A DNA stretch of 64,000 bases. It comes from a virus. A program made the position numbers and the translations under genes. Below the pieces are notes generated by a model. It was not told the DNA's origin. It worked only from the letters and a program-made list of their open reading frames with translations, and did not search any database. The stretch spans positions 25,346-89,345 of IMG/VR virus record IMGVR_UViG_3300032360_000001; one strand, given 5' to 3'. Below, piece after piece: positions 24,828 to 64,000 of the stretch. How positions within the stretch are numbered: the stretch's first letter is position 1; every line of letters begins with the position of its first letter.

Positions 24828-24829
24828 AG

Positions 24830-29714: not shown

Positions 29715-29953
29715 TCTGAGCCGTTAATTATTTCTAAAAATTCTTGGTGAGAATACTCTTTTCTTCCTATCAAATCTTTTGTAATTTCAAATATAAAGTT
29801 GGGCTGCTCTCCCTTGTATTTTACAAATGTTTTGCTCCGGTCTATAGAATACCTCATTGTTGATGGGCTGCTTTGCAGGACATCTGCGAAATCGATATAG
29901 TCTATTTCATCCGCGTCTAGTATAACATATTTTACGTCTTCTCTTAATCTCAT
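29702..29953 (-). CDS. Hypothetical protein, possibly fibre-associated
   Basis: 83 aa, in the same operon after a LamG gene. Confidence 0.7.
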   Translation of the reverse strand: MRLREDVKYVILDADEIDYIDFADVLQSSPSTMRYSIDRSKTFVKYKGEQPNFIFEITKDLIGRKEYSHQEFLEIINGSEWTL

Positions 29954-29969
29954 TGTGTTTTTCTTTTAT

Positions 29970-38270: not shown

Positions 38271-38280
38271 TTATCGTTCC

Positions 38281-38667: not shown

Positions 38668-38718
38668 GGTTCGTCACTATTATTTATAATAGAAGAAATC
38701 GAAACCTTATCCAAAAGA

Positions 38719-39144: not shown

Positions 39145-39171
39145 ACCTTTTTCCTTACCTAGGGTTACACG

Positions 39172-39204
39172 AAAAAAGACCCGGAGGGAATCCCTCCGGG
39201 CCTT
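39172..39204 (-). terminator. Intrinsic terminator after the major capsid gene
   Basis: GGCCCGGAGGG-ATT-CCCTCCGGGTC followed by T6. Confidence 0.88.
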
Positions 39205-39221
39205 AAATCTATTCCGAACAA

Positions 39222-40400: not shown

Positions 40401-40425
40401 AGTAAATTTCCTCTCTTATTTAATA

Positions 40426-40989
40426 TTAAAGTTCCAGTTTGATCAGGAGGTAACCATCGACGTCACTGACACCGAGTGATTTGCCAACTAAATGGTTAGC
40501 GCTGTCCTGATTTAGCGTTGTGATCTCGCCATCGTCAGCAGTATAGAGCTTGGTGTTGGCGTATGCAACCGTTCCGATTGTGTCTCCAGTATATAGGAAT
40601 ACTCCTCTGGTTACCACAGGGACGGTTTGTCCGCTGATCACCACTTCCATTTCAGCCGCCTTGCGGGGGTTGAACTTCAGTAATTCTCCGTTTTCATCGA
40701 CCTCTTGAATGTCGTGCAGCATCATGCCTAGGGCAACGTTACCGCTTGACGCAAGGGCCACCTTTGCTACTGTTCCGTATCTCTGCGAAACAGTGCCGTC
40801 GTAGGAAGCTCCGGGGCTTCCGAGCATTTCGACAGGTTCGGATGTATTATCCCATCCCTGTACTACTTTAACAATTGATCCACGAGGGATTTTGTCACCC
40901 GCACTTACGCCAATAGCACCGCTATAGGCGTAAAGGTTGATAACATCATGCTCATCGTAAATTCTAAATGGTTTTAGATTAATAGCCAT
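40426..40989 (-). CDS. Capsid decoration/cement protein
   Basis: 187 aa directly upstream of the MCP; beta-tulip-like (VPVVTRG...LYTADDG...VGKSLG). Confidence 0.7.
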   Translation of the reverse strand: MAINLKPFRIYDEHDVINLYAYSGAIGVSAGDKIPRGSIVKVVQGWDNTSEPVEMLGSPGASYDGTVSQRYGTVAKVALASSGNVALGMMLHDIQEVDENGELLKFNPRKAAEMEVVISGQTVPVVTRGVFLYTGDTIGTVAYANTKLYTADDGEITTLNQDSANHLVGKSLGVSDVDGYLLIKLEL

Positions 40990-41025
40990 AATTTATTTCT
41001 CCTTTTTTCTTAATGTAAAATTTAA

Positions 41026-42561
41026 TTATTCTTTCAATTCCCATTGGTCTACGTCAAAAGCTCTTCTGAACTTGTCGTGTACAGTGGGTTCTTCGGCTGG
41101 TGTAGAAACTGGAACCGTAGACGCTTCCGCTTCAGCATTTTCCAAAGCCTCCGTAACAGCTTCCTCGGTTTCCTCGGACTCTTGTTTCGCGTTGGTTTCG
41201 GAAGTCTCAGCTTCCTTTTCAACGGGGGTTTTGGTCTCTGCTGCCACGGCAACTTCTTGCGCTTCGGCCTCTTCAGCCAGCAACTCTTTATTTTTGTGAC
41301 GAATAAGGGTGGACATTTTCTTTTGGTATGTCTCAAACCCGTCATCATCCAAATCCTTTACGTCTGACGCGATAACTTCTCGATCTTCATCGTTAAGCTC
41401 GTAGACGTCGTCCATGTGGGCCATACGTTGGTTAAACTTCTCTTCGGCCTCCTTTGCCTCTTTCTCGTCAACGAGTTTGGCAATTTCGGTCTTGAGGGTA
41501 TTAAGCTCCTCGTGGGTGTTCTTCTCTGCTTTCTCGATTTTGTCATTGGCCTCTTTGGCTGCCTTTAGCGACTCGTTAAGTTCGGTTTTTTCGGCCTCAT
41601 ACTTGTCGACAGACTCTTGGAGTTCCGTTTTGATAAAATCCGTGATAGCAGAAGCGGAAACTTCCTGTAGGCTCTCATCAGTGATATCTTTCAAACTGTT
41701 TATTTTCATAGCTAGTCTCTTTTCTTTGATTACATTGTTTATATTGGTTTGTGAAATATTTTCTTTATTTTTGGTTTCTGGGTTAATCTGCTTGTTTTTA
41801 GCAAGATTCTCCTTTGCTTCCTCTTTTTTGACGAAGACGCCTTTCACATCCGCTGCCGGAGTTTCCGTAAGTCCTATCCCAAGGGGAATGACCGTGTTGA
41901 TTACTTTGCGGTAAATAAATTTACCATCATCAAGTTCTCCTGATCCGCCAAAAATTTTTAAATTTTCTTTCAATGATTCTATCTGTTCCGGGTCGTCAAT
42001 GACAACCGCGTTTTCGATATTCTTTTCTTCTCCTGCTAGAACCAATAAGTTGTAGTCTGTGAAACCCAACTCCCAACTCGCTGAAATTTTCATGAAGTGT
42101 TCGCTTGTTGGATCGTTTGATTCTTCTATGATATCAGATAAGTCGTTATTTACTACTTTCCACACTATTCCGCCGAGGGTAATGTTAAATGGCTCATTTC
42201 CGCTTGCCACCTTATCCTTATCTACTAGAGCATCCGTTCCGAACTCGCTGAACCCAGCGGTAAGGATGGTACCTATTACTCTTTGTCTGTTATGTTCAAT
42301 ATTTATAGGTTTGTTAATGAACGATTCAAAAATTTCTACAGCCGTTTTCGTGTCAATGACGTCCCCATTCCTATTAACCCTATTGGCTACGCAAGCATTG
42401 AAAGCGATGGGAAGGAGGTCGATGTTTTTGGAGGTATCAATTTCCGGGATGAAATTCGACACGTCTAACGTGCTCGCCATAGCAAGGTACTTGTCCTTCT
42501 CTTCTGATACTAAGGGTCTTATGACCGAGCTAAATATTGTGGTGTGTTCGAATTTTTTCAT
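41026..42561 (-). CDS. Prohead protease fused to a scaffold domain
   Basis: N-terminal NRNGD...PINIEH...SASWE...GIGLTETPA; acidic coiled-coil C-terminal half. Confidence 0.8.
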   Translation of the reverse strand: MKKFEHTTIFSSVIRPLVSEEKDKYLAMASTLDVSNFIPEIDTSKNIDLLPIAFNACVANRVNRNGDVIDTKTAVEIFESFINKPINIEHNRQRVIGTILTAGFSEFGTDALVDKDKVASGNEPFNITLGGIVWKVVNNDLSDIIEESNDPTSEHFMKISASWELGFTDYNLLVLAGEEKNIENAVVIDDPEQIESLKENLKIFGGSGELDDGKFIYRKVINTVIPLGIGLTETPAADVKGVFVKKEEAKENLAKNKQINPETKNKENISQTNINNVIKEKRLAMKINSLKDITDESLQEVSASAITDFIKTELQESVDKYEAEKTELNESLKAAKEANDKIEKAEKNTHEELNTLKTEIAKLVDEKEAKEAEEKFNQRMAHMDDVYELNDEDREVIASDVKDLDDDGFETYQKKMSTLIRHKNKELLAEEAEAQEVAVAAETKTPVEKEAETSETNAKQESEETEEAVTEALENAEAEASTVPVSTPAEEPTVHDKFRRAFDVDQWELKE

Positions 42562-42565
42562 TGGC

Positions 42566-42916
42566 TTATGATTGTAAATAATAAGTTACTAAAATAGAAT
42601 AATTGGTGTTCGAATTATTCAGTTTCATTTTCAATGCGTTTCCGGCTGTTAACTTAAGTGGGCCAGACAGGTTCACTGAGGCTACCCCACCCGCCGCTAC
42701 GTATAAGTCTGCAATCTCTGTTGAGTCATCCTGAACGGTTACCGTTCCTGCTGTTCCCTTGCTTACAACGATATCCGTTATTACAATTGAATCAGTACTT
42801 ACCGAAGGGGCCGCAATCACTGCCGCTGCTGTGCTGATGTCTGACCCTTTCTTATATGCATAACTCAGCCCCGCTGCAATGCCGTCATGCTTAAAATCGC
42901 TTTCTTTTCTTGCCAT
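42566..42916 (-). CDS. Small beta-rich putative virion protein
   Basis: 116 aa with an RBS-like GAGG and a GTGTAT motif upstream. Confidence 0.65.
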   Translation of the reverse strand: MARKESDFKHDGIAAGLSYAYKKGSDISTAAAVIAAPSVSTDSIVITDIVVSKGTAGTVTVQDDSTEIADLYVAAGGVASVNLSGPLKLTAGNALKMKLNNSNTNYSILVTYYLQS

Positions 42917-42936
42917 AATAAAATATCCTCTTCTTA

Positions 42937-43458
42937 TTAATACACCTTATTAATTGGTGAATACTCTTCTAAATACAGATCTTCTAGGTTATTAAAGCTC
43001 ACTCTCATGTTATATTTCTCAATGTCTTGGTCTGCTTTTTCGAAATTTGGCTCCTCTGCCTTCTCTAAAAAAGCATTAACATTAGCCATCCCCCATTGGT
43101 TGCATGTTTTTTTTGAACCTTTTGGGCGTAAATTGACACCCTGCCTGTATGCTTCTTTTATTTTTGAAAATTGAGCTTTTGTGTTAAATTCGGAGTTGTG
43201 ATCTTTCTGTTTTTTTCTTAAAACCCCAATTATCTTACTAGAATAATCTATAGCCTCTTCTTGAGATAAAGCAGCTTGAGCTTTCTTCTTGGCGGGGGCG
43301 GGTATACATTTTCCGCCCTTCTCTACGTACCCTTTGTTGCAATTGGGTGGATAGCCAGCCTTTTCGTCAGCCTCCACAAGAGGAACCTCGTTTACCTTTT
43401 CCCAGAGATTAGAGTATAACTCTTTCTTCTTTTTGGTGATAAAAAGTTTTTCTTTCAT
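42937..43458 (-). CDS. Hypothetical head-region protein
   Basis: 173 aa; short Cys pair (CNKGYVEKGGKC) and KEAYRQG...QWGMANVNAFL segment. Confidence 0.7.
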   Translation of the reverse strand: MKEKLFITKKKKELYSNLWEKVNEVPLVEADEKAGYPPNCNKGYVEKGGKCIPAPAKKKAQAALSQEEAIDYSSKIIGVLRKKQKDHNSEFNTKAQFSKIKEAYRQGVNLRPKGSKKTCNQWGMANVNAFLEKAEEPNFEKADQDIEKYNMRVSFNNLEDLYLEEYSPINKVY

Positions 43459-43522
43459 TTTAGCGCAACGTGAATTCAGACCCGTTAGAACATATTACAC
43501 AAAAATGATTAGATATTAAAAA

Positions 43523-44017
43523 TTATATTTTTTTTAAGAGCAATATTTTGCTTATCTTGGTGTACCTTCCGAAAAAGTTATCTATGTTTACATCTATCGG
43601 AAAGCAAAGCCAATGTGCGTCAAGAATCTCCCCCCATACAAGAACGAGTGCTACGTCCTTCTTTGGGTCAAGCTCATTTAGCTTATCAGCAGCTATTACT
43701 TTGTAGCCATATTTTTTGCATACGGTTTTTATTTCGCTAGGGAGAGTTATCTGTAGTGCGCCGTGGTGAAGCATGGAAAGAAGAAGCCTCGTGCCGTTTC
43801 CGGTGTCTTGTATATCTCTACTTATCTGAATTCTATTTATGGGATTCTCTAAGGCTTCGAAAGCCTTTTCTAAAGCGATGGGGCCACAAGCATTGAAGTG
43901 CGATATATAATATCCTAGTTCGTCTTTCTTGGTTCTGTCTGGATGAAATATAGCGCAGCTTACATTCAATAAGCATATTGCTATTACCCAAAGTATAGTT
44001 CTTCTTAGTTTTACCAT
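43523..44017 (-). CDS. Putative lipoprotein with a C39/papain-like peptidase domain
   Basis: From ATG 44017: signal-like MVKLRRTILWVIAICLLNVSC, then ACGPIAL (Cys) and AHW (His). Confidence 0.6.
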   Translation of the reverse strand: MVKLRRTILWVIAICLLNVSCAIFHPDRTKKDELGYYISHFNACGPIALEKAFEALENPINRIQISRDIQDTGNGTRLLLSMLHHGALQITLPSEIKTVCKKYGYKVIAADKLNELDPKKDVALVLVWGEILDAHWLCFPIDVNIDNFFGRYTKISKILLLKKI

Positions 44018-44262
44018 AGTAAAAAAATTAAATTTAAACCGATGCTTACTCCCAGCGCTCCCGCCATAACCGCTAGCATGATTCTGGCGTCGCAAACTGT
44101 AGATTCATTTTTTTTCTTTGTAACGAGTTTTTTCTTTTGAGGGGATTTCTTCTCTGGGCGCGTAATCCACCAGTCTCCATTTTTAGTTTGGAAAGCGTAG
44201 GTGGTTTTTTCCTTGTCCCACCACCTGTAGGATCGAGATTTGTCGAGGATCGCAAGTTTCAT
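44011..44262 (-). CDS. Hypothetical membrane protein
   Basis: 83 aa with a C-terminal hydrophobic helix. Confidence 0.6.
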   Translation of the reverse strand: MKLAILDKSRSYRWWDKEKTTYAFQTKNGDWWITRPEKKSPQKKKLVTKKKNESTVCDARIMLAVMAGALGVSIGLNLIFLLW

Positions 44263-44272
44263 TACGATTCTC

Positions 44273-44743
44273 CTATATTAATTTGTCTGGGTCGATTGGC
44301 TCAGGTCGCTGTGGTGGTGCAATTTTCGGCGGCCATTCTTTTATACTCTTTAAATATTCTATTAGCTTTTGGACCATGGCTTTTTGAAATTCAAGTTCGG
44401 CGGAGAGGCTTTGAATAGCTTCGCCTGCCCTTTGTAAAGTGTTTTCCTGTTTGGTATTTAATTTTCTTAGGCTGTGATTTATTTCGCCTTGGAAATCAAT
44501 AAAGTCTCCTTGCTCTTTATTAATCTGCCTAGCTAAATTAAGATTCCCCTCGACGCCGATGACATCTTTTTGGATTTCTAAAAGGTTAATTGCGTAGTCG
44601 GCCTGATATTTTAGACCCAACCCTATAAAAAGAATCGCAGTAACTAATACTGCATATATAGATTTTATGTTATCGTTTAGGAAGTTTGATGTTCGTTTCA
44701 GGAGATTTCCAGCTTTCTCCCTTAGTATCTTTAGGGCTTTCAT
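44273..44743 (-). CDS. Membrane-anchored coiled-coil protein
   Basis: One transmembrane segment followed by a heptad region; GTGTAAATA upstream. Confidence 0.7.
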   Translation of the reverse strand: MKALKILREKAGNLLKRTSNFLNDNIKSIYAVLVTAILFIGLGLKYQADYAINLLEIQKDVIGVEGNLNLARQINKEQGDFIDFQGEINHSLRKLNTKQENTLQRAGEAIQSLSAELEFQKAMVQKLIEYLKSIKEWPPKIAPPQRPEPIDPDKLI

Positions 44744-44873
44744 CTTTTGTATTTACACAAATAAACCCAAAAATCATAACAAATAAACAAAGTATAAACA
44801 TCACAATGTAAAATTGAGGAGTTCGGTCTTCCGGAGGATATCTCTTCCAGCTACAACCATGTGGCTTTGGCAT
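44670..44873 (-). CDS. Small membrane protein
   Basis: One transmembrane segment; GTGTAA just upstream; overlaps the next gene. Confidence 0.45.
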   Translation of the reverse strand: MPKPHGCSWKRYPPEDRTPQFYIVMFILCLFVMIFGFICVNTKDESPKDTKGESWKSPETNIKLPKR

Positions 44874-44892
44874 GATGTAACCTTACACAATT

Positions 44893-45096
44893 TTATCTAA
44901 GTATTCTGTGCTTTATAACTTTTTTTGTCTTTTTGTCAGAATAAAGAAATACTATTTGATCCCTACCCTCCATTGGGTTGAAATACTTCACCCACTCTAC
45001 ATGGAAAGGGTACCTGTCGGAGTTCCTGTAAAGGTCGGTGAGGTCCCAGCTTCCGTCCCTTTTTTTGTGCGGCTTTTTTTTATAGTTTTTTTTCAC
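44893..45096 (-). CDS. Hypothetical protein
   Basis: Probable GTG start overlapping the ClpP stop (GTGA). Confidence 0.55.
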   Translation of the reverse strand: MKKNYKKKPHKKRDGSWDLTDLYRNSDRYPFHVEWVKYFNPMEGRDQIVFLYSDKKTKKVIKHRILR

Positions 45097-45836
45097 TTCT
45101 TCTTTTTCTTTTTGCCCGCCGGGTGTTCGGGCATCATCGCTCTGATTTCGTCGACCAGCCCCGACTCTAGACATTCGTCTGCATCTATCCACCAATCTTT
45201 GCGATCCCAGTTTCTTTTAATTTTTTGTTTAGATAATTTAGATCTGGAAACGAAAATATCAAGACAACGTTCTTCAATTCTCTTAACTAGCTTCACCTCG
45301 TCCTCTACTTCATAGGTTTTGCCGATTGCCCCGAAAGCTGCTCTGTGGATCATCATCCATGCTTGGTGGCCTATCCACCTGATATCTCCAGCTTGCAAAA
45401 GGATACCAGCCATGGACGCAGCCATTCCTAAAGAACCAGTTATAACTTTGTGTCCTTGGGATCTCATTTCTTGAAGAAAATCAAACAATTCGAAACCATC
45501 AATAATACTTCCTCCGGGTGACGAAAAGATAATCTCCATATCACATTCTGGATCTAGGCGGTGCCATTGCGTAAGCTTGCTCATGCATGCCTGCACAGAG
45601 TTAGAGTTAACATCTTTATTAAATCTGTAAAGATGATTCTCCTCGTCGGTTGTGAGTTCTTTTTTTCTTGAAATATAAGCCTTCTGGTACTCGATTTCGA
45701 CTTTACCTGCTTCGGCAAGGAGTTTTCTTGTCTCTGCGTCCTGCCTTCTTATTTCAGATTCAGATTTTAATACTTCCGCCTCTTTAATCTTAAGGTCGGC
45801 CTTGATTTCTTCTTTTGTTCTTTTTTCTTCACTCAT
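45093..45836 (-). CDS. clpP: ClpP-family serine protease with an N-terminal coiled coil
   Basis: SPGGS, MAASMAG (catalytic Ser), MIH (His), DWWIDADECLESGLVD. Confidence 0.88.
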   Translation of the reverse strand: MSEEKRTKEEIKADLKIKEAEVLKSESEIRRQDAETRKLLAEAGKVEIEYQKAYISRKKELTTDEENHLYRFNKDVNSNSVQACMSKLTQWHRLDPECDMEIIFSSPGGSIIDGFELFDFLQEMRSQGHKVITGSLGMAASMAGILLQAGDIRWIGHQAWMMIHRAAFGAIGKTYEVEDEVKLVKRIEERCLDIFVSRSKLSKQKIKRNWDRKDWWIDADECLESGLVDEIRAMMPEHPAGKKKKKK

Positions 45837-45862
45837 AATGCGTTTCTCCAAGTGACCTTATC

Positions 45863-45899
45863 AAAAAAAGGCTACACAAGTGTTTACACCCGCATAGCC
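45863..45899 (-). terminator. Intrinsic terminator after the lysis-like cluster
   Basis: GGCTATGCGGGTG-TAAA-CACTTGTGTAGCC followed by a T tract. Confidence 0.75.
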
Positions 45900-45929
45900 C
45901 TGTTGCTTTAAAAAGCTTTTCGTGTAGAA

Positions 45930-46154
45930 TTAATCCTTGGGTATGCCCCCTGCGTACCAACCCTCCGGCAGCTTAACTTTATTCTTACTAAGCACCCATT
46001 CTCCGTTTTTAAGTATATAGCATTTTCCGGTTACATTTGGGCCAATTCTTATCATGTCTGCGCCAGTATCAACAAACACTACACGAGTGCTTCCGCACCC
46101 CATAAGGAGAAACGCAAAACTAAGAATCGTCAGATTTTTCAATAGGTTCTTCAT
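45930..46154 (-). CDS. Lipoprotein, o-spanin-like
   Basis: MKNLLKNLTILSFAFLLMG-C lipobox; overlaps the 3' end of the upstream gene. Confidence 0.6.
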   Translation of the reverse strand: MKNLLKNLTILSFAFLLMGCGSTRVVFVDTGADMIRIGPNVTGKCYILKNGEWVLSKNKVKLPEGWYAGGIPKD

Positions 46155-46317
46155 CTTTTTTGTTTTTTGACTTCTCAAGCTGCTTGTTTATTCTATCCCG
46201 CCACCTATCTCTTAGGGACTGAGGTATATCATCCGCGTCTGAAGCTTTAGTATCTTTCTTTACTTCCGCCGTCAGCCATTCTAAGACGGCTTTTATAAGT
46301 GCCGTCAGCCAAGCCAT
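46120..46317 (-). CDS. Small protein with an N-terminal amphipathic helix, i-spanin-like
   Basis: MAWLTALIKAVLEWL; lies between the holin-like and lipoprotein genes. Confidence 0.45.
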   Translation of the reverse strand: MAWLTALIKAVLEWLTAEVKKDTKASDADDIPQSLRDRWRDRINKQLEKSKNKKDEEPIEKSDDS

Positions 46318-46323
46318 TTTGGA

Positions 46324-46533
46324 TTAACCCTTCTTGGCGAGACCTCTAGACACTGTGTATCCGACTGCTGCCAGCCCAGAAACCACCATGCCAAAGACTT
46401 GGTTCGCTGTTCCACTGGCCTCTGGATCGAGCACATCTGCTCCCCAGAGCAATGATCCCAATGCGACCACCACTGTCAACCAGAATTCCGTAGTTTTCCA
46501 ACCCGGCTTCACTTCGTTCTTTTTTACTGCCAT
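46324..46533 (-). CDS. Holin-like protein
   Basis: 69 aa, two transmembrane segments, KPGWKTTEFW N-terminus and a basic C-terminus. Confidence 0.65.
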   Translation of the reverse strand: MAVKKNEVKPGWKTTEFWLTVVVALGSLLWGADVLDPEASGTANQVFGMVVSGLAAVGYTVSRGLAKKG

Positions 46534-46589: not shown

Positions 46590-47774
46590 TTATACTCCGA
46601 GCTTCTTGAGCTCCTTAAGTTTTTCGTCAGGGCTCGCTAAGCCACCAATTGTTGTAAATACGGTGAGGCTATCTTTGTCTCCGGAATAAATTCCCCTGTG
46701 TACAACGTTCCCAGCGGCAAGCATCCGACACAGCTGGTCAAAGGCTTGATCTAGGTTAGCTTGAGGTATATTGTCTAATTGATTCTGTCCACCAACGACA
46801 ATTGCTCCAGCGCAACTACCAGTAGATAAGTCTATTCCTCCAGATAATACTCCACTATTGAAATTGTCTCTTACAGCCCTAGAGATACTGACGGGATTTT
46901 CCCAATCATTAACTGGTGCTGCTCCAAAGACCATGAGTCCTGAGTCTAGGACGTTCTTATAATCATTCGCGTCAAATGCGGTATAAGAGCTATCTCTAGC
47001 CGCAGTCAAATTAAATAGATGGAAAAGCCCAGCCATACTCATATTAGCGGTTTGCCAAAAATTCGATACCACAAGGTTCGGGTATACTTTTCCTATCCTT
47101 TCGTTGTCGATGACCACCAAAGGAGAAACCACGCCTTCCTTAACTAACGCATAGACGCTTTTTAGGCAATCATGAGCATTAGCGTTGACCTTCTTACCTT
47201 CTGAAGCTTTCGGTAAAGCTAAGATTACTCCTACTTTAGAAGTGGAGCATCCGAGTGTCTCTTGTAGCTCTTTAGCTGCGCGAACCAATGGTACCACAGT
47301 ACCACCTCCGGTTCCGCCACCAGCGCCTGCACAGACCATAATTCTATCAAGCTCTTCGCCAAAAGAGTACCTCATGAAATCTATTACATCTTCTTTTCTT
47401 TCTGCGAATACCTTTCTGGCGACTTCAGGGTCTTTCCCCGCTCCTCCTTCACCAATGCAAAGTTTATTGTTTAAATTAACCGTATTTAAATCCTGCTCAG
47501 CGGTGTTTAGAACCGCAATTTTTCTATAACCCAAACCGTGAAAAGTCTCAGCTATTCTTGATCCCCCTTGTCCAGCGCCGATAAATGCAAATTTGAATGC
47601 TACATCAATTTCGTCCTTCACTTCGACTGTCTGCTCCGACTGTGGGGCAGGCATGGGGATGTCTGGCAGGGATAGATCTGGTCCAGATGGGTTATTGTAG
47701 CCGACTACCCCTTGTCCGGCTTGGCCCTCTATGGGCAAGTCTACTTTTATAGAATTATCGTTTTGTTCTTCCAT
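46590..47774 (-). CDS. Tubulin/FtsZ-family GTPase
   Basis: GAGQGGSRIA, GAGKDP, signature GAGGGTGGG, IDNE and FDAND (T7-like loop). Confidence 0.93.
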   Translation of the reverse strand: MEEQNDNSIKVDLPIEGQAGQGVVGYNNPSGPDLSLPDIPMPAPQSEQTVEVKDEIDVAFKFAFIGAGQGGSRIAETFHGLGYRKIAVLNTAEQDLNTVNLNNKLCIGEGGAGKDPEVARKVFAERKEDVIDFMRYSFGEELDRIMVCAGAGGGTGGGTVVPLVRAAKELQETLGCSTSKVGVILALPKASEGKKVNANAHDCLKSVYALVKEGVVSPLVVIDNERIGKVYPNLVVSNFWQTANMSMAGLFHLFNLTAARDSSYTAFDANDYKNVLDSGLMVFGAAPVNDWENPVSISRAVRDNFNSGVLSGGIDLSTGSCAGAIVVGGQNQLDNIPQANLDQAFDQLCRMLAAGNVVHRGIYSGDKDSLTVFTTIGGLASPDEKLKELKKLGV

Positions 47775-55199: not shown

Positions 55200-55920
55200 C
55201 AGATTCCTCAGGTTCCTGAGCGGGGGGTTGTTTTTCGGCGATTAAATTACAGTCGCTTCCGTGGTCGTAGAGAACATAGTACCCGCAACTATTAAAATAG
55301 CCGATAAGGCTTCTGAGTCTGTTTCCTTGGGTAAGCATTCCGTCAGCGTGAAGATGCTCGAAACAAACCTGCTTGAGAGAAGGATACCGCAATAAATCAA
55401 TACTAAACAGGTTCAGCATATCGTACCCCTCCGTATCTATGATTAAATGAGTTATGTCTGGTACTTCTCCCATTAATTTCTCTAAAGAAATCGTATCCAC
55501 CTCATATTGAAATAGTTCCCCCACTTGCGCGTGTGCGGCAGTGAAGTCTGGGTCAATTGATGAGAATGGAGAACCCCTGTCTTCGTTGGGGACATGAAAT
55601 GAGATCTGCTTACCACCAATTTCTATTGGAATGACCGCGGCAAACTTAAAATCACAAAATGAAAAATCCTTGTATTTTTCCCTCGCCTTTTCTAGTGCCC
55701 ATGGGTTCGCATCGACGAGCATGCATGAATCCATCTCTAATGCGTTTTCCTCTACGAAGGTAAAAACTGGATCATCACCGTCGTTTGTTCCTATCTGGAG
55801 AAGCTTGAGACCCTCAGGGCTTTCTTCTTCATGTGGCAATCTCGTTTTGAGATGCGTGCTATTTTCTTTTGTCTTACTCATGGGTTCTTCCTTTTTATCT
55901 CCTGTAGTCTTAAAGCTCAT
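55192..55920 (-). CDS. FkbM-family methyltransferase
   Basis: QIGTNDG, VDAN, IDTEGYD, FEH. Confidence 0.82.
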   Translation of the reverse strand: MSFKTTGDKKEEPMSKTKENSTHLKTRLPHEEESPEGLKLLQIGTNDGDDPVFTFVEENALEMDSCMLVDANPWALEKAREKYKDFSFCDFKFAAVIPIEIGGKQISFHVPNEDRGSPFSSIDPDFTAAHAQVGELFQYEVDTISLEKLMGEVPDITHLIIDTEGYDMLNLFSIDLLRYPSLKQVCFEHLHADGMLTQGNRLRSLIGYFNSCGYYVLYDHGSDCNLIAEKQPPAQEPEESDE

Positions 55921-56618
55921 AGTATATCTACGTCTCCTTCATATATTAGTCCTTTCGCTTTTTTTAGTATGGATTTTTTTATGTTTTTAAGTTGCTTGTA
56001 CCCCGGGGATCTATTTTTTTCAGACGTCTTATACCCCATTGCCTTTGCGACTTTCTCTTCGTCCATGTTTTGCACATATAATTTTTCATAGACAGCCCAC
56101 TCTGATGGTTTTAATATTTTCTTCATTTTTTTATGAAGTTTTACCGCAGACTTTTCAATATCTACATAGTCGGATGACATACTGAACACTTCTTGGGAAT
56201 GATTTTCTAATGATACTGGCAGCTTTGTGTCGTGTGCTCTTTTTTTACTTTTTTCCCAGTTGGCGTATAGTGGGCATGTATTACATTGTTTTTGGTATAT
56301 AGTACATAAGTCCTCACCCTCAGCAGCGGCACACTTTAAACATGGTCTGGAGAAGTTTCCATAGTTGTTTCTTATTAGGTTTTTTATTTGGTTGGAGATT
56401 ATTCTGTTTAGCCAAGGACTGAGGGGTTTTTCCGGATCATATAGGTGCCATTTTTTATATATATGGATTCTTATAATTTGAGAAACATCATCAAAATCCA
56501 TCCAACTTAGAATGGTAAGATTCCACTTACCCTTCCTTTTTTGGATTTCGGTGTTGATGTCTGAGATTACGTCCTCAAAGCGAGGACGCTTCGCTTGCGT
56601 TTTTTTCGAATTAGCCAT
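55917..56618 (-). CDS. Phage sigma factor with a Cys-rich insertion
   Basis: Region 2-like DDVSQ...YDPEK..SPW..RIISNQIKNLIR; region 4-like helix-turn-helix (EEKVAKAMGY). Confidence 0.78.
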   Translation of the reverse strand: MANSKKTQAKRPRFEDVISDINTEIQKRKGKWNLTILSWMDFDDVSQIIRIHIYKKWHLYDPEKPLSPWLNRIISNQIKNLIRNNYGNFSRPCLKCAAAEGEDLCTIYQKQCNTCPLYANWEKSKKRAHDTKLPVSLENHSQEVFSMSSDYVDIEKSAVKLHKKMKKILKPSEWAVYEKLYVQNMDEEKVAKAMGYKTSEKNRSPGYKQLKNIKKSILKKAKGLIYEGDVDIL

Positions 56619-57478: not shown

Positions 57479-58246
57479 TTATTCTGTGTTTGTATTCTTA
57501 AGTTTTTTTACTACGTATTTCACTAACTCTGATCTCATAATATCATCCTCAGTAAATTCAAATGTATGTATACCCATATCCTTACTCTCTTCATCAGAAA
57601 AAGTATTAAACATCTTCTGAAAGCCGCCGGTGGAGCGCCTTAAATCTGTCTGCATGGGGTCGGCCAACACGAAGCAGCGGCAATTCTTACCCATCCTTGT
57701 TAAGACCGTCGTTATTTCCTGCTCAGTTGAGTTTTGAGCCTCGTCCATGATGATTACCTTGTCTGGCCAGTGTAGTCCACGAGCAAAATTGATAGGAAAC
57801 ATAGAAACCCGCCCAGTTTCCTCTAGTTTTGTCACTTTAGTACCTATTAGAAGCTCATCCAGCTTATCAATGAAAGGCAAATTATAAAATCTTAATTTAT
57901 CATCCGCTGATCCGGGTAAAAATCCTAGGTGAGAGTCGGAAGATTCGACAGCAGACCTCAGATAGCAAATTTCTGAAGCAGCATGCATGTTTAAAAGCTG
58001 AAGACCGCAATAAGTGGCGAGTAAAGTCTTACTTGTGCCCGCAGGACCATCAACAAATACTATTCTAGTAGATGGATTGAGCGCAACTTTAAAGAATTCC
58101 TTTTGTTTGTCTGTCCAAGGGAATTGTCTTAATTTGATTTGCCCTTTTAGTGGATTACGAATCGGCGGAGGGCCGGGTGGTGTCATGGAGTCTTCTAATT
58201 GACCTTTTTGTTCCCCATCGACCTGTTTCAGTTTTTTACGAGGCAT
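57479..58246 (-). CDS. phoH: PhoH-family ATPase
   Basis: GPAGTSKT, LGFLPG, RG...IMDEAQN, LTRMG, DPMQTD, DIMRS. Confidence 0.93.
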   Translation of the reverse strand: MPRKKLKQVDGEQKGQLEDSMTPPGPPPIRNPLKGQIKLRQFPWTDKQKEFFKVALNPSTRIVFVDGPAGTSKTLLATYCGLQLLNMHAASEICYLRSAVESSDSHLGFLPGSADDKLRFYNLPFIDKLDELLIGTKVTKLEETGRVSMFPINFARGLHWPDKVIIMDEAQNSTEQEITTVLTRMGKNCRCFVLADPMQTDLRRSTGGFQKMFNTFSDEESKDMGIHTFEFTEDDIMRSELVKYVVKKLKNTNTE

Positions 58247-59445: not shown

Positions 59446-59858
59446 TGGTGGAGGCGGTGGGAGTCGAACCCACGTCTTTAAAACCGTCAACAAGATATAC
59501 TACAAGCTTAGTCGGTGATGTACTCGTTAGGCGACCACCGACAGACTGACTAACGAGTTTTGAGCCGCCTTTTATACTAGTGCTGCACATTCCCTAGTTT
59601 TTTGCTCGCTGTCGTCGCCCTAGCCCCTTAACGAGCATCCAGAGTAGGACGTGACGGCTTATGCCGCCATTTGGAGGGCTTCCTCCTCAACGTAACCGAA
59701 CTTGGCGAGAATCTCGTCAGCCTCGGCTACAGAAAGAGCCATCTCCATGTCAATGTCATCATTGGCATATATGTTTTTGATAGATGTTTTAAGAGGCCAA
59801 CCATCATCCTCTACTTGCAATCTGGCGTAAGGAATCAAATCGAAACCAGTACGCCCCC
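59446..59858 (-). ncRNA. ssrA: tmRNA
   Basis: 5' GGGGGCGTACTGGTTTCGA; 3' GACGTGGGTTCGACTCCCACCGCCTCCACCA with a G3-U pair; tag frame 59766-59659 reads ANDD...LQMAA*. Confidence 0.95.
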
Positions 59859-60085
59859 TTGTTATATATTACAACACTATAAATGAAAAGGCCAGAAAAA
59901 ACGAAAGAGCCCGGGGGTTTTTTTGAATTGACTTTTATTTATTATTAATTATTGCTGCAAATTAATAGATTATATATTAATAGCGAGGAGATTCCCGGGG
60001 AGACTGAAGAGACCCCCCGCCCCTACGTCAGTCAAGAAAAACTTATTGACAATTTCGAGTATTAGGGGGTGGGGAGGGGGTGGCC

Positions 60086-60499
60086 CTAATCCCTGCAACG
60101 GATGTCGTTGCCCTCGTTGTCATCGTACCATCCGACAACAGCCGAACCATCAGAGTCACGCACTACCTCTTTGCCGCAGTAATACTCACGGTGGAGGGTG
60201 TTGTTTGAAAAGCTGCAAGGCTCGCCATCCATAAAGGATTTGTGCGATGGTGATTTTGCGGGTGTGGTGTAAACACGCAAGTCATCCAAGAAGTCTTGCA
60301 CTTCATCGACGTCTGCATAATGGCAGTCCTCGAATTTCACAAGGTCGCCATAACCTAGACCGTCGAAAGTCTCAAGCCAAACGCCTTGGCAAGATACGAT
60401 GTGAACCAAGCGGCAAGGCTGCCCAGTGTTTGCGTTGATGTAGATAGCCCCGATGATGAGGTTGTTAGCTTTGTTAGTTTTATCATTCATAATTTTCAT
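60086..60499 (-). CDS. Hypothetical early protein
   Basis: 137 aa; TATACT 6 nt before the ATG. Confidence 0.8.
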   Translation of the reverse strand: MKIMNDKTNKANNLIIGAIYINANTGQPCRLVHIVSCQGVWLETFDGLGYGDLVKFEDCHYADVDEVQDFLDDLRVYTTPAKSPSHKSFMDGEPCSFSNNTLHREYYCGKEVVRDSDGSAVVGWYDDNEGNDIRCRD

Positions 60500-60542
60500 G
60501 CGTTCAGTATATCACAGTAGGTGGGACATCCGTAGTCCTACC
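60500..60542 (-). promoter_or_regulatory. Palindrome plus -10 promoter, copy 1
   Basis: GGTAGGAC-TACGGAT-GTCCCACC-N8-TATACT-GAACGC-ATG. Confidence 0.8.
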
Positions 60543-60553
60543 ATTAAACTTTT

Positions 60554-60838
60554 TTATCTTTCCATGCTCTCCTCATAAGTGAGCACCCTAGTGCCTTTGC
60601 TACCTTTGTCGTCTGCGTGGTTGTGGCTCCACACCGTTTCTTTCTCTGTACCGTCTGCGCTTACGCAGCAAATCTCAATGCCGCCAGAGGTTAACCCAGC
60701 CTTGCGGCCATGATACATTAGCTCACCCGCGTCAATCAGCATCTTGTTGAGTGAGTCACGGCACACCACAAGGGAGTTGCACCTGTCGCCCAAGTACCAG
60801 AGTTCGTAGGTTCGTTTGCTTTCTTCTTTCATAATCAT
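60554..60838 (-). CDS. Hypothetical early protein
   Basis: Start reassigned to the ATG after the repeated promoter (MIMKEESKR...). Confidence 0.75.
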   Translation of the reverse strand: MIMKEESKRTYELWYLGDRCNSLVVCRDSLNKMLIDAGELMYHGRKAGLTSGGIEICCVSADGTEKETVWSHNHADDKGSKGTRVLTYEESMER

Positions 60839-60881
60839 GCGTACAGTATACCATACGAGGTGAGACATCCGCTGTCCTACC
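60839..60881 (-). promoter_or_regulatory. Palindrome plus -10 promoter, copy 2
   Basis: GGTAGGAC-AGCGGAT-GTCTCACC-N8-TATACT-GTACGC-ATG. Confidence 0.8.
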
Positions 60882-60903
60882 AAAAAGAAAAATAAAAAAA
60901 AAT

Positions 60904-60950
60904 AAGCTTGACAAAAAATCGGGGGCCCCATTTTTGGGGCAAGTAAAACT
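60904..60950. repeat. Intergenic repeat module (CTTGAC...CGGGGGCCCCATTTTT...CAAG)
   Basis: Similar to the modules at 62010, 63188 and 63976. Confidence 0.7.
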
Positions 60951-61132
60951 TACTGACACAGAACGTCGATTGCGTCAATAAGCTGGAAGCCATAGTCAAG
61001 CACAATCGCAACAAACATAATCGTCACAGCGAACTTGACCATTGGCATCATCAGTTCATCGGCAAACGCTTTGTTGAATTCGTCGTTGATGTCTTGAATT
61101 TTTCCGATAATGGGTAGGTTGTTTTTCTTCAT
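60950..61132 (-). CDS. Small membrane protein
   Basis: 60 aa with one transmembrane segment. Confidence 0.65.
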   Translation of the reverse strand: MKKNNLPIIGKIQDINDEFNKAFADELMMPMVKFAVTIMFVAIVLDYGFQLIDAIDVLCQ

Positions 61133-61201
61133 AATTTTTTTAGTTAGTTAGTATTAAAATAATTCCAATAAATATTCCGTAAAGGCAGCGCGGGTCAATG
61201 T

Positions 61202-61414
61202 TCATAGGCTGTGATTCTCTAGCCCGTACATGGTTTCGACCTTGGGAGTGCCGTCAGAGCATAGCCCGCAAGCGTTATAAAAACGCCCCTTGTCAAAGCG
61301 CGGGTTGTCCTTGGCGAACTTGGCAGCGGCCAAGATGGCGAGGTGTTGAGGTGCAACGCCCTTGTTGGCGGCGTCGATTAGTGAGGCAACAAATTCGAAA
61401 TGTTGTTTAGTCAT
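61202..61414 (-). CDS. Hypothetical protein
   Basis: MTKQHFEFVA...FAKDNPRFDKGRFYNACG; codon usage looks coding. Confidence 0.8.
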   Translation of the reverse strand: MTKQHFEFVASLIDAANKGVAPQHLAILAAAKFAKDNPRFDKGRFYNACGLCSDGTPKVETMYGLENHSL

Positions 61415-61433
61415 AATTTTTTAAGTGATAGGA

Positions 61434-61706
61434 TTAGAGTTGATTGTGAGGCAGAACGCTGTTGGCGTCAGGGCCGAGACTTTGCTCGGTCTTGGCGAAC
61501 TGTTGACGCTCTTGGATTTCACCAACGAGGGTGACGTCTAGGAACACATCTCCCACGCCGTCGAGGTCGATGTCTAGGGTGCGACCATCGGGCATGATTT
61601 TGTTCACGATGCCAGTGCGGCCAGTGAAACGCGAGAGGTGAGAGGTGACAACCACTTGCTGATTCAGCAGCAGTTGAGCTTCGGTGATGTTTTTCGTATC
61701 TTTCAT
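61434..61706 (-). CDS. Small KOW/SH3-like protein
   Basis: ATG 61706 follows TCGACT-N17-GACAAT-N7; contains VVVTSHLSRFTGRTGIV. Confidence 0.7.
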   Translation of the reverse strand: MKDTKNITEAQLLLNQQVVVTSHLSRFTGRTGIVNKIMPDGRTLDIDLDGVGDVFLDVTLVGEIQERQQFAKTEQSLGPDANSVLPHNQL

Positions 61707-61749
61707 TGTTAAAATTGTCTCATAAAATAGCCCAAAAGTCGATAAAAAC

Positions 61750-61932
61750 TTATTCACAATCCTCACAGGCAAATTCAATCTGTAAGCTCGGCGCGTTAAT
61801 GAACTCACCGCGTACCATCGCGTGGACGATGCGCGCAGCGTGGTCTTCGTCGCGAGCCTTCACGAACTCGGTGCGGGTGTCGGCCTCAGTGCTGAGGACT
61901 GTTACTTTGTAGATTGCTTCCTTAATCATCAT
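61750..61932 (-). CDS. Hypothetical early protein
   Basis: Start reassigned to the ATG after promoter copy 3. Confidence 0.75.
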   Translation of the reverse strand: MMIKEAIYKVTVLSTEADTRTEFVKARDEDHAARIVHAMVRGEFINAPSLQIEFACEDCE

Positions 61933-61975
61933 GCGTACAGTATAGCACAGAGGGTGGGACATCCGCTGACCCACC
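61933..61975 (-). promoter_or_regulatory. Palindrome plus -10 promoter, copy 3
   Basis: GGTGGGTC-AGCGGAT-GTCCCACC-N8-TATACT-GTACGC-ATG. Confidence 0.8.
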
Positions 61976-61984
61976 TAAAAAAAA

Positions 61985-62055
61985 GTATTCACAGACAATT
62001 CACAAAAATCCTTGACATTGTGAATAACTCCGGGGGCCCCATTTTTGCGTCAAGC
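61985..62055. repeat. Intergenic repeat module with DnaA-box-like 9-mers
   Basis: GTATTCACA, CAATTCACA, CTTGACAT-TGTGAATAA-CTCCGGGGGCCCCATTTTTGCGTCAAGC. Confidence 0.75.
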
Positions 62056-62060
62056 ATTAC

Positions 62061-62342
62061 TTACTCACCGCCCATGTAATACGGGTCTGCTTCAAAGTCT
62101 GCTTTGTTAGATGCTTGCGCTACGGTCAACCCATCCTCTAGGTAACTCATCAGCCCTTGCTTCTCAATGAAGTGTTCTTCTAACTCATCGAAATGAGGCC
62201 CACCCGTGCCCATGTCGTTGGCATACTGCAATGCCCGAAATAGGCTCACGGCCTCGTTAAAGGTCGCGCAAGTTTTCGCTGCGCCCATGTTTTGCTCCCA
62301 TGTGGTAGCTACTACGTTTTGCTTTTTACCGTTTTTTATCAT
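62061..62342 (-). CDS. Hypothetical protein
   Basis: ATG 62342 directly after the upstream stop. Confidence 0.7.
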   Translation of the reverse strand: MIKNGKKQNVVATTWEQNMGAAKTCATFNEAVSLFRALQYANDMGTGGPHFDELEEHFIEKQGLMSYLEDGLTVAQASNKADFEADPYYMGGE

Positions 62343-62343
62343 A

Positions 62344-62469
62344 CTAAAATAATGCTTTAAGGATTGCTTCAATGGTGATTGCGATAATAACTACCGCACC
62401 GAATACGGGGAAGATGCATAGCGTAAAAAATCCGCTTAACTGCAACATCTCTCTTGTGTCTCTTTTCAT
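62344..62469 (-). CDS. 41-aa membrane peptide (not in the ORF track)
   Basis: MKRDTREMLQLSGFFTLCIFPVFGAVVIIAITIEAILKALF; fills the gap exactly. Confidence 0.6.
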   Translation of the reverse strand: MKRDTREMLQLSGFFTLCIFPVFGAVVIIAITIEAILKALF

Positions 62470-62473
62470 AATC

Positions 62474-62632
62474 TTAATAAATATCAATCTCGTTTTCTGT
62501 TAGCTCAAAATCTTGCCCATCTTCATCAATCGCAATGATGGTGTCAAATTCTGTAATCTCATCAACTATCATTAGTTGCATACCAAAGCGAATCTCATCG
62601 CCTACCTTTAATGTCTTGTTTTCTATTGTCAT
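62474..62632 (-). CDS. 52-aa acidic SH3-like protein (not in the ORF track)
   Basis: MTIENKTLKVGDEIRFGMQLMIVDEI...; fills the gap. Confidence 0.7.
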   Translation of the reverse strand: MTIENKTLKVGDEIRFGMQLMIVDEITEFDTIIAIDEDGQDFELTENEIDIY

Positions 62633-62638
62633 AATCTT

Positions 62639-62878
62639 TTAGCTGTAAACTTCGTAATCTTCGTCGTAAGCAAATGCGTGAGTTGCTTCAGTGTAAGCAG
62701 CAACTTCATCGGTTACGGTGGTGTTGCTAATGTAGCCAAAGCGGCAAAGGTTGCGAGCAACCCATTCAGCTTGGTGAGAGTCAATCGCCTCTAGCACTAT
62801 GTTGATATAACGAGAGCCAGCAAATGCTGTCGTAAACTCTACGTTGTAAGTTTTCATTTTGTTTTTCATATTCTTCAT
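62639..62878 (-). CDS. Hypothetical early protein
   Basis: Start reassigned to the ATG after promoter copy 4. Confidence 0.75.
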   Translation of the reverse strand: MKNMKNKMKTYNVEFTTAFAGSRYINIVLEAIDSHQAEWVARNLCRFGYISNTTVTDEVAAYTEATHAFAYDEDYEVYS

Positions 62879-62921
62879 GCGTCTAGTATAGCATACAGGG
62901 TGGGACATCTGTAGTCCTACC
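62879..62921 (-). promoter_or_regulatory. Palindrome plus -10 promoter, copy 4
   Basis: GGTAGGAC-TACAGAT-GTCCCACC-N8-TATACT-AGACGC-ATG. Confidence 0.8.
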
Positions 62922-63120
62922 TACATCTTTCTATATCTTTTTCTCTGCGTAAATCTTCCTCTTCCTCATGGGTGAACAGGCGGCCCGCTTCTACGTTGGC
63001 AATCTTTAAGCCAATCTTGCTGCCAAAGAAATTGGCCCGCACATCAGCGATGGATGCGCCAGTAGCGGCCCAGCGTGTGCCGTTTGCGGTGGTTACGATA
63101 AAGTCTTTTATGTCTTTCAT
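62917..63120 (-). CDS. Hypothetical early protein
   Basis: ATG 63120 after a sigma70-type promoter. Confidence 0.75.
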   Translation of the reverse strand: MKDIKDFIVTTANGTRWAATGASIADVRANFFGSKIGLKIANVEAGRLFTHEEEEDLRREKDIERCR

Positions 63121-63155
63121 TGTTATAATATAACACAAAAAACCCTGTTTGTCAA
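63121..63155 (-). promoter_or_regulatory. Sigma70-type promoter, leaderless
   Basis: TTGACA-N17-TATATT-N6-ATG. Confidence 0.85.
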
Positions 63156-63163
63156 TGGCATAG

Positions 63164-63246
63164 TTATACAAAGTATTCACAAAATAAGCTTGCATTGTGA
63201 ATAACTTCGGGGGCCCGCCCAAGCCGTCAAGCTAAAGTTATCCACA
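63164..63246. repeat. Intergenic repeat module with DnaA-box-like 9-mers
   Basis: TTATACAAA, GTATTCACA, TGTGAATAA-CTTCGGGGGCCC...GTCAAGC, TTATCCACA. Confidence 0.75.
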
Positions 63247-63249
63247 GGC

Positions 63250-63489
63250 CTACCAGTCTGGGTACTCATGGGCGTCATGCCATGCGTCATCCGCATAGCT
63301 GCCATAGCCATCGTCCATGCTGCCACCACAGCACCCGCAGCAAGGCGCATCCTCACACTGGCCCGTGACCTCCTTATGGGAGGGCTGGGGCTGGGCCTGC
63401 TGGGCCTCATGCTCCATCTGGGCCTCGACGTCAGGGGTGATGGCCTCCTCGCAGGAAACCCGAATCATGTCATGTAGTTCGTTCATCAT
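63250..63489 (-). CDS. Small Cys-motif protein (CEDAPCCGCC)
   Basis: 79 aa; TTGCGC-N16-TATAAT-N6-ATG upstream. Confidence 0.8.
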   Translation of the reverse strand: MMNELHDMIRVSCEEAITPDVEAQMEHEAQQAQPQPSHKEVTGQCEDAPCCGCCGGSMDDGYGSYADDAWHDAHEYPDW

Positions 63490-63534
63490 TTAAAAATTAT
63501 ATCAGACTGGCTAAAAAGCGCAATTAAAAGTTAT

Positions 63535-63903
63535 TCACACACGCTGCGGGAATGGTTTAGACTCATGCCCACACGCGTCCATGGGGTCAAGATGGGCCTT
63601 GCCATCGATGCACTCACGTTGCCACGCGTGCAGATTAGACACACACCATCCCGCGCTCCGAAAATCACCGTCCTCATCGACGGGCCAAAAAATTCTAGAT
63701 GACCCCATTGGGCTGGTGGCCTGAATCTCATCGATGGGCAACCATCCCAACCACCCATGCCCACCGCGCAAACAAACACGCTCCGCGACGGAATTATGGC
63801 CCGTAAGCTCGCGGGTCACATCTTCAAAAATTGGCCCATGCTCGCGGATGCGGTTGCGGGTGCGGCGGGTGGCGTTAGAGGCTGCTGTCAATTTCAGTTT
63901 CAT
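63535..63903 (-). CDS. Hypothetical early protein
   Basis: ATG 63903 after a sigma70-type promoter; MKLKLTAASNATRRTRNRIREHG...GWLGWLP. Confidence 0.75.
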   Translation of the reverse strand: MKLKLTAASNATRRTRNRIREHGPIFEDVTRELTGHNSVAERVCLRGGHGWLGWLPIDEIQATSPMGSSRIFWPVDEDGDFRSAGWCVSNLHAWQRECIDGKAHLDPMDACGHESKPFPQRV

Positions 63904-63939
63904 TAGGGATAATATAACACGAAAAAACGCATCTGTCAA
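63904..63939 (-). promoter_or_regulatory. Sigma70-type promoter, leaderless
   Basis: TTGACA-N17-TATATT-N7-ATG. Confidence 0.85.
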
Positions 63940-63947
63940 CCCTAAAC

Positions 63948-64000
63948 TTACTCACACGTTATTCACGAAAAAAAAGCTTGACTGTGAATAACTCGGCGGG
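63948..64000. repeat. Intergenic repeat module with DnaA-box-like 9-mers (truncated)
   Basis: TTACTCACA, TTATTCACG, GCTTGAC-TGTGAATAA-CTCGGCGGG. Confidence 0.7.

Follow-up and report, generated by a model that had tools for sequence, protein, structure and literature searches.

DnaA-box-like sequences as the core of a predicted promoter-upstream element in early-gene spacers of an uncultured marine phage

Introduction

In T4-type phages, small early genes are shuffled by recombination between promoter-early stem-loop (PeSL) cassettes, which are short repeated units carrying a strong sigma70-like early promoter and a stem-loop and lying between small genes, most of them ORFans; among relatives, cassettes have been gained or lost at the repeats (Arbiol et al. 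2010, PMC2839356; Comeau et al. 2014, PMC4122927). A similar layout was found in an uncultured phage at the end of the IMG/VR virus record IMGVR_UViG_3300032360_000001 (89,345 bp, estimated completeness 57%), the last 64 kb of which, 64,000 nucleotides (nt), were analysed and are called the window; positions are those of the window unless a relative is named. The small genes of 61700-64000 are set apart by repeated spacers with matches to the DnaA box TTWTNCACA, and a relative differs from the window by a 430-nt insertion or deletion bounded by two such boxes; the promoters were here predicted from sequence alone. The phage belongs to another lineage than the PeSL phages, the nearest matches of its terminase large subunit (TerL) being Bacillus siphovirus-like phages at about 24% identity and not T4-type phages, so that the resemblance is functional and not one of descent. 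Features of its own are start codons placed 6-7 nt past the -10 box, a second class of promoters, of palindrome type, and a sharp 13-nt upstream element that matches the DnaA box.

Three further systems resemble parts of this arrangement. At DnaA-regulated promoters, such as those of dnaA and nrdAB in E. coli and ori/pR in lambda, a consensus 9-mer lies beside a sigma70 promoter; DnaA stabilises the polymerase-DNA complex at nrdAB, and in lambda it contacts the polymerase and activates transcription at ori (PMC8203912). In the present phage, by contrast, one fixed upstream position recurs on many promoters, the fifth base of the box is fixed as T (TTATTCACA strand), a CTTT flank is conserved and binding of DnaA is putative. 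The iss region of T5-like phages is early, enters the cell first and contains inverted repeats and family-conserved boxes, among them TTATTCACA; for these first-step-transfer boxes a role of host DnaA has been proposed only (Davison, bioRxiv 10.1101/866236). The T5 boxes differ in that they lie in a large untranslated region as pairs separated by 3 bp; their proposed function is to stop the injection of DNA, and no promoter register is described for them. UP elements (PMC2412878, PMC2613000) share with the present element the location at -60 to -40 and a T-run that precedes an A-run at matching positions, but differ from it with respect to its invariant TGTG, the C or G inside the tract, the sharpness of the motif and its reverse-oriented copies. 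In the literature searched, no description of DnaA boxes as parts of phage early promoters was found; the nearest is the T5 preprint, in which the boxes have a different role.

Only for a few model phages is it known in detail how a host polymerase that is still unmodified comes to read the first phage genes. The element described here is a compact upstream signal with a single-base register, defined across a family of uncultured phages, and it coincides with the binding site of DnaA, the one DNA-binding protein common to nearly all bacteria. If DnaA were the reader, early transcription of the phage would be coupled to the replication status of its host; if it were not, the element would still be a well-defined promoter module that marks the joints of early-gene cassette exchange.

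Results and discussion

A 13-nt element in register with predicted early promoters

The gene direction is the minus strand of the window and is called forward. In this direction the box reads TGTGAATAA and, judged on the sequences, each box is the core of a 13-nt element, TGTGAATAACTTT, that is built into repeated promoter/terminator spacers. With a search pattern derived from a palindrome-type promoter, 22 stretches were retrieved from IMG/VR contigs measuring up to 178 kb, and a pattern combining the box with a palindrome retrieved four stretches. In 183,837 bases, made up of 23 related loci and the last 6 kb of the window, the exact 9-mer was present in 67 distinct copies, where 2.8 are expected from composition; overlapping or near-identical loci were de-duplicated by sequence context only, and the distinct copies are thus not phylogenetically independent. 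Copies of the window itself (L001-L005) were excluded from all counts, and metagenome-assembled genome (MAG) loci (L029-L034) from the promoter counts, i.e. CTTT conservation, TTGAC register and UP matching. Locus L008, which has no orientation marker, was left out of one register count and entered the gap-distribution and box-pair counts in an arbitrary orientation.

The boxes were found at preferred distances from -35 sequences. TTGAC occurred at a gap of 7, 8, 17 or 18 nt in 36 of 68 distinct boxes, compared with an expectation of 0.45 (P 7e-60). Among 52 forward copies the gap to TTGAC was 17 nt in 22 cases, 18 nt in six, 7-8 nt in another six and 19, 25, 37 or 38 nt in four, while 14 copies had no exact TTGAC within 45 nt, several of these showing variant hexamers at the same gaps. 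TTGAC was mostly followed by a 17-nt spacer and TATATT, and then by an ATG 6-7 nt on. The 17-18-nt and the 7-8-nt classes are one helical turn apart; in the 17-nt class the box occupies positions -61 to -53 in the usual numbering. Following the box, CTTT was invariant in 22 distinct promoters of the 17-nt class, and the sequence between CTTT and the -35 box varied. A forward box was present at these positions in five of the six promoters of 61700-64000. We put the probability that the repeats act as a promoter-upstream element at roughly 0.85, as far as sequence comparison can tell.

In all six promoters of 61700-64000, and in nearly all promoters when the relatives are included, the start codon is found 6-7 nt downstream of the -10 hexamer, which implies that the early mRNAs are leaderless. 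Some relatives instead have a leader that starts with TATTGAGAGTGAGAG.

The box cluster at the contig end

The original prediction had described a dense array of DnaA boxes at gene boundaries, often in convergent pairs. Its six exact TTWTNCACA sites are present at 61750 (+), 62019 (-), 63196 (-), 63238 (+), 63531 (+) and 63983 (-), the sign denoting the strand on which the consensus is read, and near matches were recovered at 61985 and 63173 (GTATTCACA), 63948 (TTACTCACA), 63959 (TTATTCACG) and, with two mismatches, 61996. A further near match at 63164 (TTATACAAA) has the sequence that was claimed, but no supporting context, and may be due to chance. The boxes at 63531 and 61750 hold the stop codons of the upstream open reading frames (ORFs; 63535..63939 and 61750..61974), and convergent pairs were measured, from start to start, at 23-24 bp (63983/63959 and 63196/63173), 34 bp (62019/61985) and 42 bp (63238/63196).

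Counted over the whole window, TTWTNCACA was not enriched: eight copies were found compared with 5.78 expected, and eight were reached in 23 of 100 shuffles. The two copies outside the cluster, at 54092 and 56068, are the only ones in the other 61.7 kb. The end cluster itself was significant: for six sites in 2.24 kb the Poisson P is 8e-8 if the shuffle rate is taken and 2e-10 if the rate in the remainder of the window is taken, and none of 5000 dinucleotide-preserving shuffles of 61701-64000 reached six sites (mean 0.28, maximum 4). All five copies of the exact 9-mer TTATTCACA in the 89,345-bp record lie within its last 2.3 kb. Only 9 nt separate the last box from the end of both window and contig, so that part of the array is probably missing.

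Clustering was also observed in the relatives. In the complete genome G001 (178,487 bp) five of six copies lie within 126447-129848 (3.4 kb), and in G004 all 13 copies lie within 18512-29997 (11.5 kb). G002 and G003 carry four copies each over about 10 kb; in both, two boxes in minus orientation are followed by two in plus orientation, with about 3.1 kb from one to the next (G002 36822-46368, G003 81009-90555), which suggests that the early region of these relatives is a large inverted duplication or has a divergent layout.

The clustered matches are thus genuine, yet they do not form an origin-like array. The original prediction referred to box clusters as origins or DnaA-titrating loci and took the phage to hijack or sequester host DnaA, or to tie early transcription to the host replication state. 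As an origin of replication or a datA-like titrating locus, the cluster would load or soak up host DnaA, and the link to promoters would be secondary. Six consensus boxes in 2.3 kb and 13 in 11.5 kb of G004 would suit such a function, as would the tandem copies 2 bp apart found at some sites, and the conserved boxes in the first-entering region of T5-like phages have been proposed to bind DnaA (bioRxiv 10.1101/866236). The boxes are, however, locked to promoter geometry, stand one to three per spacer hundreds of bases apart, are spread over kilobases and have a fixed base at the position that the DnaA consensus leaves free. No 40-nt window above 80% A+T was present in 61701-64000, the sequence past the contig end not being visible, and the cumulative GC skew was monotonic through the region. 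The DNA-binding domain of DnaA (domain IV) was encoded in none of the three records searched (the phage's own record, G000, and the relatives G001 and G004, one of these a complete genome). Taken together, an origin or titration function is highly improbable and this part of the original prediction was not upheld.

Candidate readers of the element

The early promoters presumably fire at time zero, in which case the element would be read by a protein already in the cell. Such a pre-existing protein might help or gate the recruitment of the host sigma70 holoenzyme, like an upstream class-I-like activator site, and host DnaA would be the single most likely binder; early transcription would then depend on the amount or the nucleotide state of the host initiator. 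DnaA is a monomeric protein and is in any host at time zero. That DnaA binds the element appears possible, if somewhat short of an even chance. The mechanism built on such binding is a more tentative proposal: a DnaA monomer at -57, or one helical turn closer, may activate or gate host polymerase on time-zero promoters, the first genes may fire according to the DnaA level or its ATP/ADP state, and phage DNA, as it replicates, may through its many boxes draw DnaA away from the origin of the host. Of the options in the original prediction, a link of early transcription to the host fits boxes at a fixed register in sigma70-type early promoters, with DnaA as a candidate for the protein concerned.

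Several properties of the repeats agree with DnaA as the binder. At every position the 9-mer agrees with the stringent consensus TT(A/T)TNCACA, and TTATTCACA is counted among consensus DnaA boxes in the T5 preprint (bioRxiv 10.1101/866236). The single, asymmetric sites are of the kind that a monomer would need, and tandem copies 2 bp apart were found at 63967-63948, at 62004-61985 and in L019. When one-mismatch variants of the 9-mer were counted, only the canonical TGTGGATAA was clearly above background, with seven copies compared with about two expected. Known modes of action, stabilisation of polymerase at nrdAB and activation of transcription at lambda ori (PMC8203912), would provide a precedent.

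Other observations weigh against the reading of the repeats as a promoter element bound by DnaA. The element is not obligatory: 39 of 67 core-promoter matches in the relatives had no exact box within 45 nt, and one of the six promoters of 61700-64000, the palindrome-type promoter at 62890-62885, has none either. The fifth position, free in the consensus, was as fixed as the others (A in 67 copies, G in seven, C in one and T in none on the TGTGNATAA strand, in 184 kb), although shared descent of the copies weakens this test, and the fixed base differs from the C of the canonical TTATCCACA. The four flanking bases CTTT, for which a 9-bp DnaA site has no need, were conserved like the box. Whole promoters including the spacer were similar among many copies; with conservation of this extent, concerted evolution (shared descent, gene conversion) could account for some of the invariance. 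Taken with the A-run behind it, the element's 3' half resembles a UP element in the right register. Finally, the fragment upstream of dnaA in the Pseudomonadales MAG that gives the only hint at a host (a single locus, about 200 nt upstream) contained TGTGGATAA and TTATCCTCA and not the phage variant.

The resemblance to UP elements leads to an explanation in which the alpha-subunit C-terminal domain of RNA polymerase would read the element, no separate factor would be needed and the match to the DnaA box would be coincidental. With a 17-nt gap the element extends from -61 to -47, within the UP region of -60 to -40, and strong phage early promoters, e.g. those of T4, often have UP elements (PMC2613000); the UP consensus used for comparison was AAAWWTWTTTTNNNAAA (PMC2412878). 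The mean match to this consensus was 9.1 of 14 positions in 28 box-bearing promoters, compared with about 5.3 of 14 in 39 boxless core-promoter matches, and the commonest variant, TGTGAATAACTTTTTGAAAAAA, matched at 12 of 14. The best match was obtained with the consensus start at -57, the position at which the UP consensus itself begins. The invariant TGTG at -61 to -58, however, falls outside the consensus, and the base after the 9-mer was C or G in 63 of 67 copies, which breaks the A/T tract where the consensus has T. Promoters of the 7-8-nt class have a T-run in place of the consensus A-run, and the reverse copies further upstream are left unexplained. UP elements are normally degenerate, whereas the present motif is sharp, its one-mismatch variants being near background. 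On balance, it is rather unlikely that the element is a UP element alone.

Alternatively, another sequence-specific protein may recognise the 13-nt motif and not the 9-mer, for example a regulator of the host, a protein that enters along with the DNA, or a phage product made early by which the promoters are later shut off or boosted. The length of 13 nt, the fixed 'free' position and the invariant CTTT flank would be accounted for in this way, and inverted pairs with 12-nt arms at a constant 23-24 bp, found in eight distinct cases, would fit a dimer or two facing monomers. Scans of ten early proteins with Pfam and PHROGs gave no function for any of them, and these ORFans could include a DNA-binding protein that escaped recognition. 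No candidate protein was found, though, and a time-zero promoter cannot need a phage protein that is still unmade, a role in shut-off being possible. As for a host regulator, the 12-mer TGTGAATAACTT showed no clear regulon-like excess in 121 sampled Pseudomonadales genomes, with 70 matches compared with 45 for the reversed control (a total counted by hand), and several of the matches sit on probable phage contigs. A reader of this kind is on present evidence unlikely. A CRP-type dimer site, an idea prompted by the TGTGA start, was considered separately and rejected, the second half-site not being recurrent.

Boxes and promoters of 61700-64000

The spacers of the cluster were examined one by one. 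Spacer S1 begins with the reverse exact box at 63983..63991 (plus strand; TGTGAATAAC on the plus and TTATTCACA on the gene strand). Two forward variants on the minus strand are present next to it, CGTGAATAA at 63959..63967 and, 2 bp after it, TGTGAGTAA at 63948..63956, located 19 and 8 nt, respectively, upstream of the -35 box of promoter P1. P1 (63911..63939, minus strand) consists of TTGACA, 17 nt and TATATT with TG before the -10 box, i.e. 11 of 12 consensus matches, and 7 nt after its -10 box is the ATG (63903-63901, minus strand) of gene 1, which encodes an ORFan of 122 amino acids.

The TGA stop codon of gene 1 is contained in the forward exact box TGTGAATAA at 63531..63539 (minus strand), 7 nt upstream of the -35-like hexamer TTGCGC. 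This hexamer belongs to promoter P2 (63496..63523, minus strand; TTGCGC, 16 nt, TATAAT), which has TG before the -10 box and an ATG at 63489, 6 nt after it. P2 was read by eye; with a -35 hexamer of 4/6 together with a 16-nt spacing it was missed by the promoter scan.

Downstream of gene 2, a forward variant TGTGGATAA (63238..63246, minus strand), the canonical DnaA box TTATCCACA on the plus strand, starts 3 nt past the stop codon and 7 nt upstream of TTGACG. At 63205..63230 (minus strand) TTGACG is followed by a G+C-rich imperfect palindrome without a -10 box, possibly a terminator core. Both are enclosed by an inverted pair 42 bp apart, formed by the box at 63246-63238 and the reverse exact box at 63196..63204 (plus strand). 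Another forward variant, TGTGAATAC at 63173..63181 (minus strand), precedes promoter P3 (63127..63155, minus strand; TTGACA, 17 nt, TATATT), with a gap of exactly 17 nt to its -35 box. P3 likewise has TG before its -10 box, 11 of 12 consensus matches and an ATG at 63120, 6 nt after the -10 box.

The third reverse exact box, at 62019..62027 (plus strand), directly follows a GGGGCCCCCGG palindrome. Near it are two forward copies 2 bp apart (61985..62004, minus strand), a weak one, TGTGAATTG, and TGTGAATAC. The second of these, 61993-61985, lies 40 nt upstream of a TATACT -10 box, a distance equal to that between box and -10 box in the 17-nt class of TTGAC promoters. The -10 box belongs to the palindrome-type promoter 'module A' (61939..61976, minus strand), an imperfect palindrome that ends in GATGTCCCACC and is followed by TATACT, with an ATG at 61932, 6 nt after the -10 box. 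Palindrome-type promoters form family D1 with four copies (60478-60561, 60817-60900, 61911-61994 and 62857-62940), in all of which the imperfect palindrome ending in GATGTCCCACC stands in place of a -35 box; TATACT comes next, with an ATG 6 nt on.

The forward exact box at 61750..61758 (minus strand), in which the TAA stop codon of gene 8 is contained, is 7 nt upstream of TCGACT, the -35 sequence of the weaker promoter P9 (61714..61742, minus strand; TCGACT, 17 nt, GACAAT; ATG 61706, 7 nt after the -10 box), which was also read by eye. In an equivalent setting, the relative L011 has TCGACC, 17 nt and TATACT. Outside the range of the cluster a degenerate forward copy, TGTCAATAA, was found at 60043..60051 (minus strand), 7 nt upstream of TTGACT, and similar copies with two mismatches occur at 60950-60958 and 62061-62069.

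All three exact reverse boxes (63983, 63196 and 62019) are preceded by a G+C-rich palindrome and lie 23-24 bp upstream of a forward copy, or 34 bp in the case of 62019. Two of the reverse boxes are directly followed by an ATG, at 63193-63195 and at 62016-62018 (minus strand; TTATTCACAATG), the one at 63195 being in frame with gene 3; because no convincing -10 box precedes it, this ATG is probably a coincidence.

Cassette gain and loss and spacer hairpins

G004 is without promoter P1 and gene 1, which take up 430 nt in the window, and sequence identity resumes inside the boxes 63967-63959 (left junction) and 63539-63531 (right junction). In this one case the box repeats also act as joints for the gain and loss of cassettes between relatives. 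The repeats might have no protein-binding role of their own and persist as sites of recombination and as the arms of hairpins in promoter/terminator cassettes, gene conversion keeping them alike; the junctions inside two boxes, the ability of box pairs to form RNA stems and the conservation of whole promoters among copies are all in line with this. Such a view does not account for a box and CTTT that stayed invariant while the sequence from there to the -35 box diverged freely, and 9-13 bp are short for homologous exchange. Moreover, most forward copies in the relatives have no inverted partner (19 opposite-orientation pairs were counted, with sites of up to one mismatch), and two of three full spacers folded into structures no more stable than those of shuffled sequences. 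It is accordingly quite improbable that the repeats are joints and hairpin arms only.

One of four folds was more stable than its shuffles, namely that of the 60885-60960 spacer (z = -2.42), which has a T-run after it. The 63175-63250 spacer can form a 13-bp stem between its two boxes, which was not significant (z = -0.31), and another spacer folded no better than shuffled sequence (z = 0.40). A terminator function of the spacer hairpins is therefore uncertain.

Genome content and relatives

All long ORFs of the window are on the minus strand. Their products include a T4-type terminase large subunit, a tubulin/FtsZ-like protein (46590-47774, minus strand), a collagen-repeat protein of 1750 amino acids (33018-38270, minus strand), a PhoH protein (57479-58246, minus strand) and a protein with sigma-70 region 2 (Sigma70_r2; 55917-56618, minus strand), next to which a zinc-ribbon protein is encoded. 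An ORF of at least 5475 amino acids (2-16426, minus strand) runs past the start of the window; it has a minor-tail (tape-measure) domain near the N-terminus and a LysM domain, and the domain scan indicated that it is tape-measure-like and not polymerase-like. An RNA polymerase domain was found in none of the window proteins scanned. With a sigma factor encoded and no polymerase domain found, early transcription probably relies on the host polymerase.

The phage is a member of an uncultured marine phage family with genomes of about 120-180 kb. Positions 60000-64000 were present, with at least half of the sampled words, in 15 marine metagenome runs from 12 studies. Compared with cultured phages, 60000-64000 gave no match in megablast and the promoter of one relative gave none in blastn; the identity of TerL to any cultured phage was at most about 25%. 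As megablast gave no match and TerL only matches of about 24%, neither a cultured relative nor a host was obtained by this route.

A hint at the host came from a GTDB MAG labelled 'uncultured Pseudomonadales', in which at least two contigs of this phage family are present. One of them encodes a TerL with 72% identity (L029), and a second contig has three copies of the 12-mer (G005:C17, L030-L032). These contigs may point weakly to the host or be an artefact of binning; similar cases are possibly G015:C15 and several small G020 contigs.

Contigs of 151-246 nt from RNA libraries (Logan; four runs from two studies) were identical to parts of 60651-63470, and some of them cross spacers. Transcript starts are not visible in these contigs and they may originate from DNA, so no conclusion on transcription was drawn. 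A full-length transfer-messenger RNA (tmRNA; Rfam RF00023, 144 bits, E 1e-56) is encoded at 59446-59858 on the minus strand; ARAGORN reported no tRNA or tmRNA, although Rfam detects the tmRNA. Conserved parts of the tmRNA draw unrelated RNA contigs in the search of the RNA libraries.

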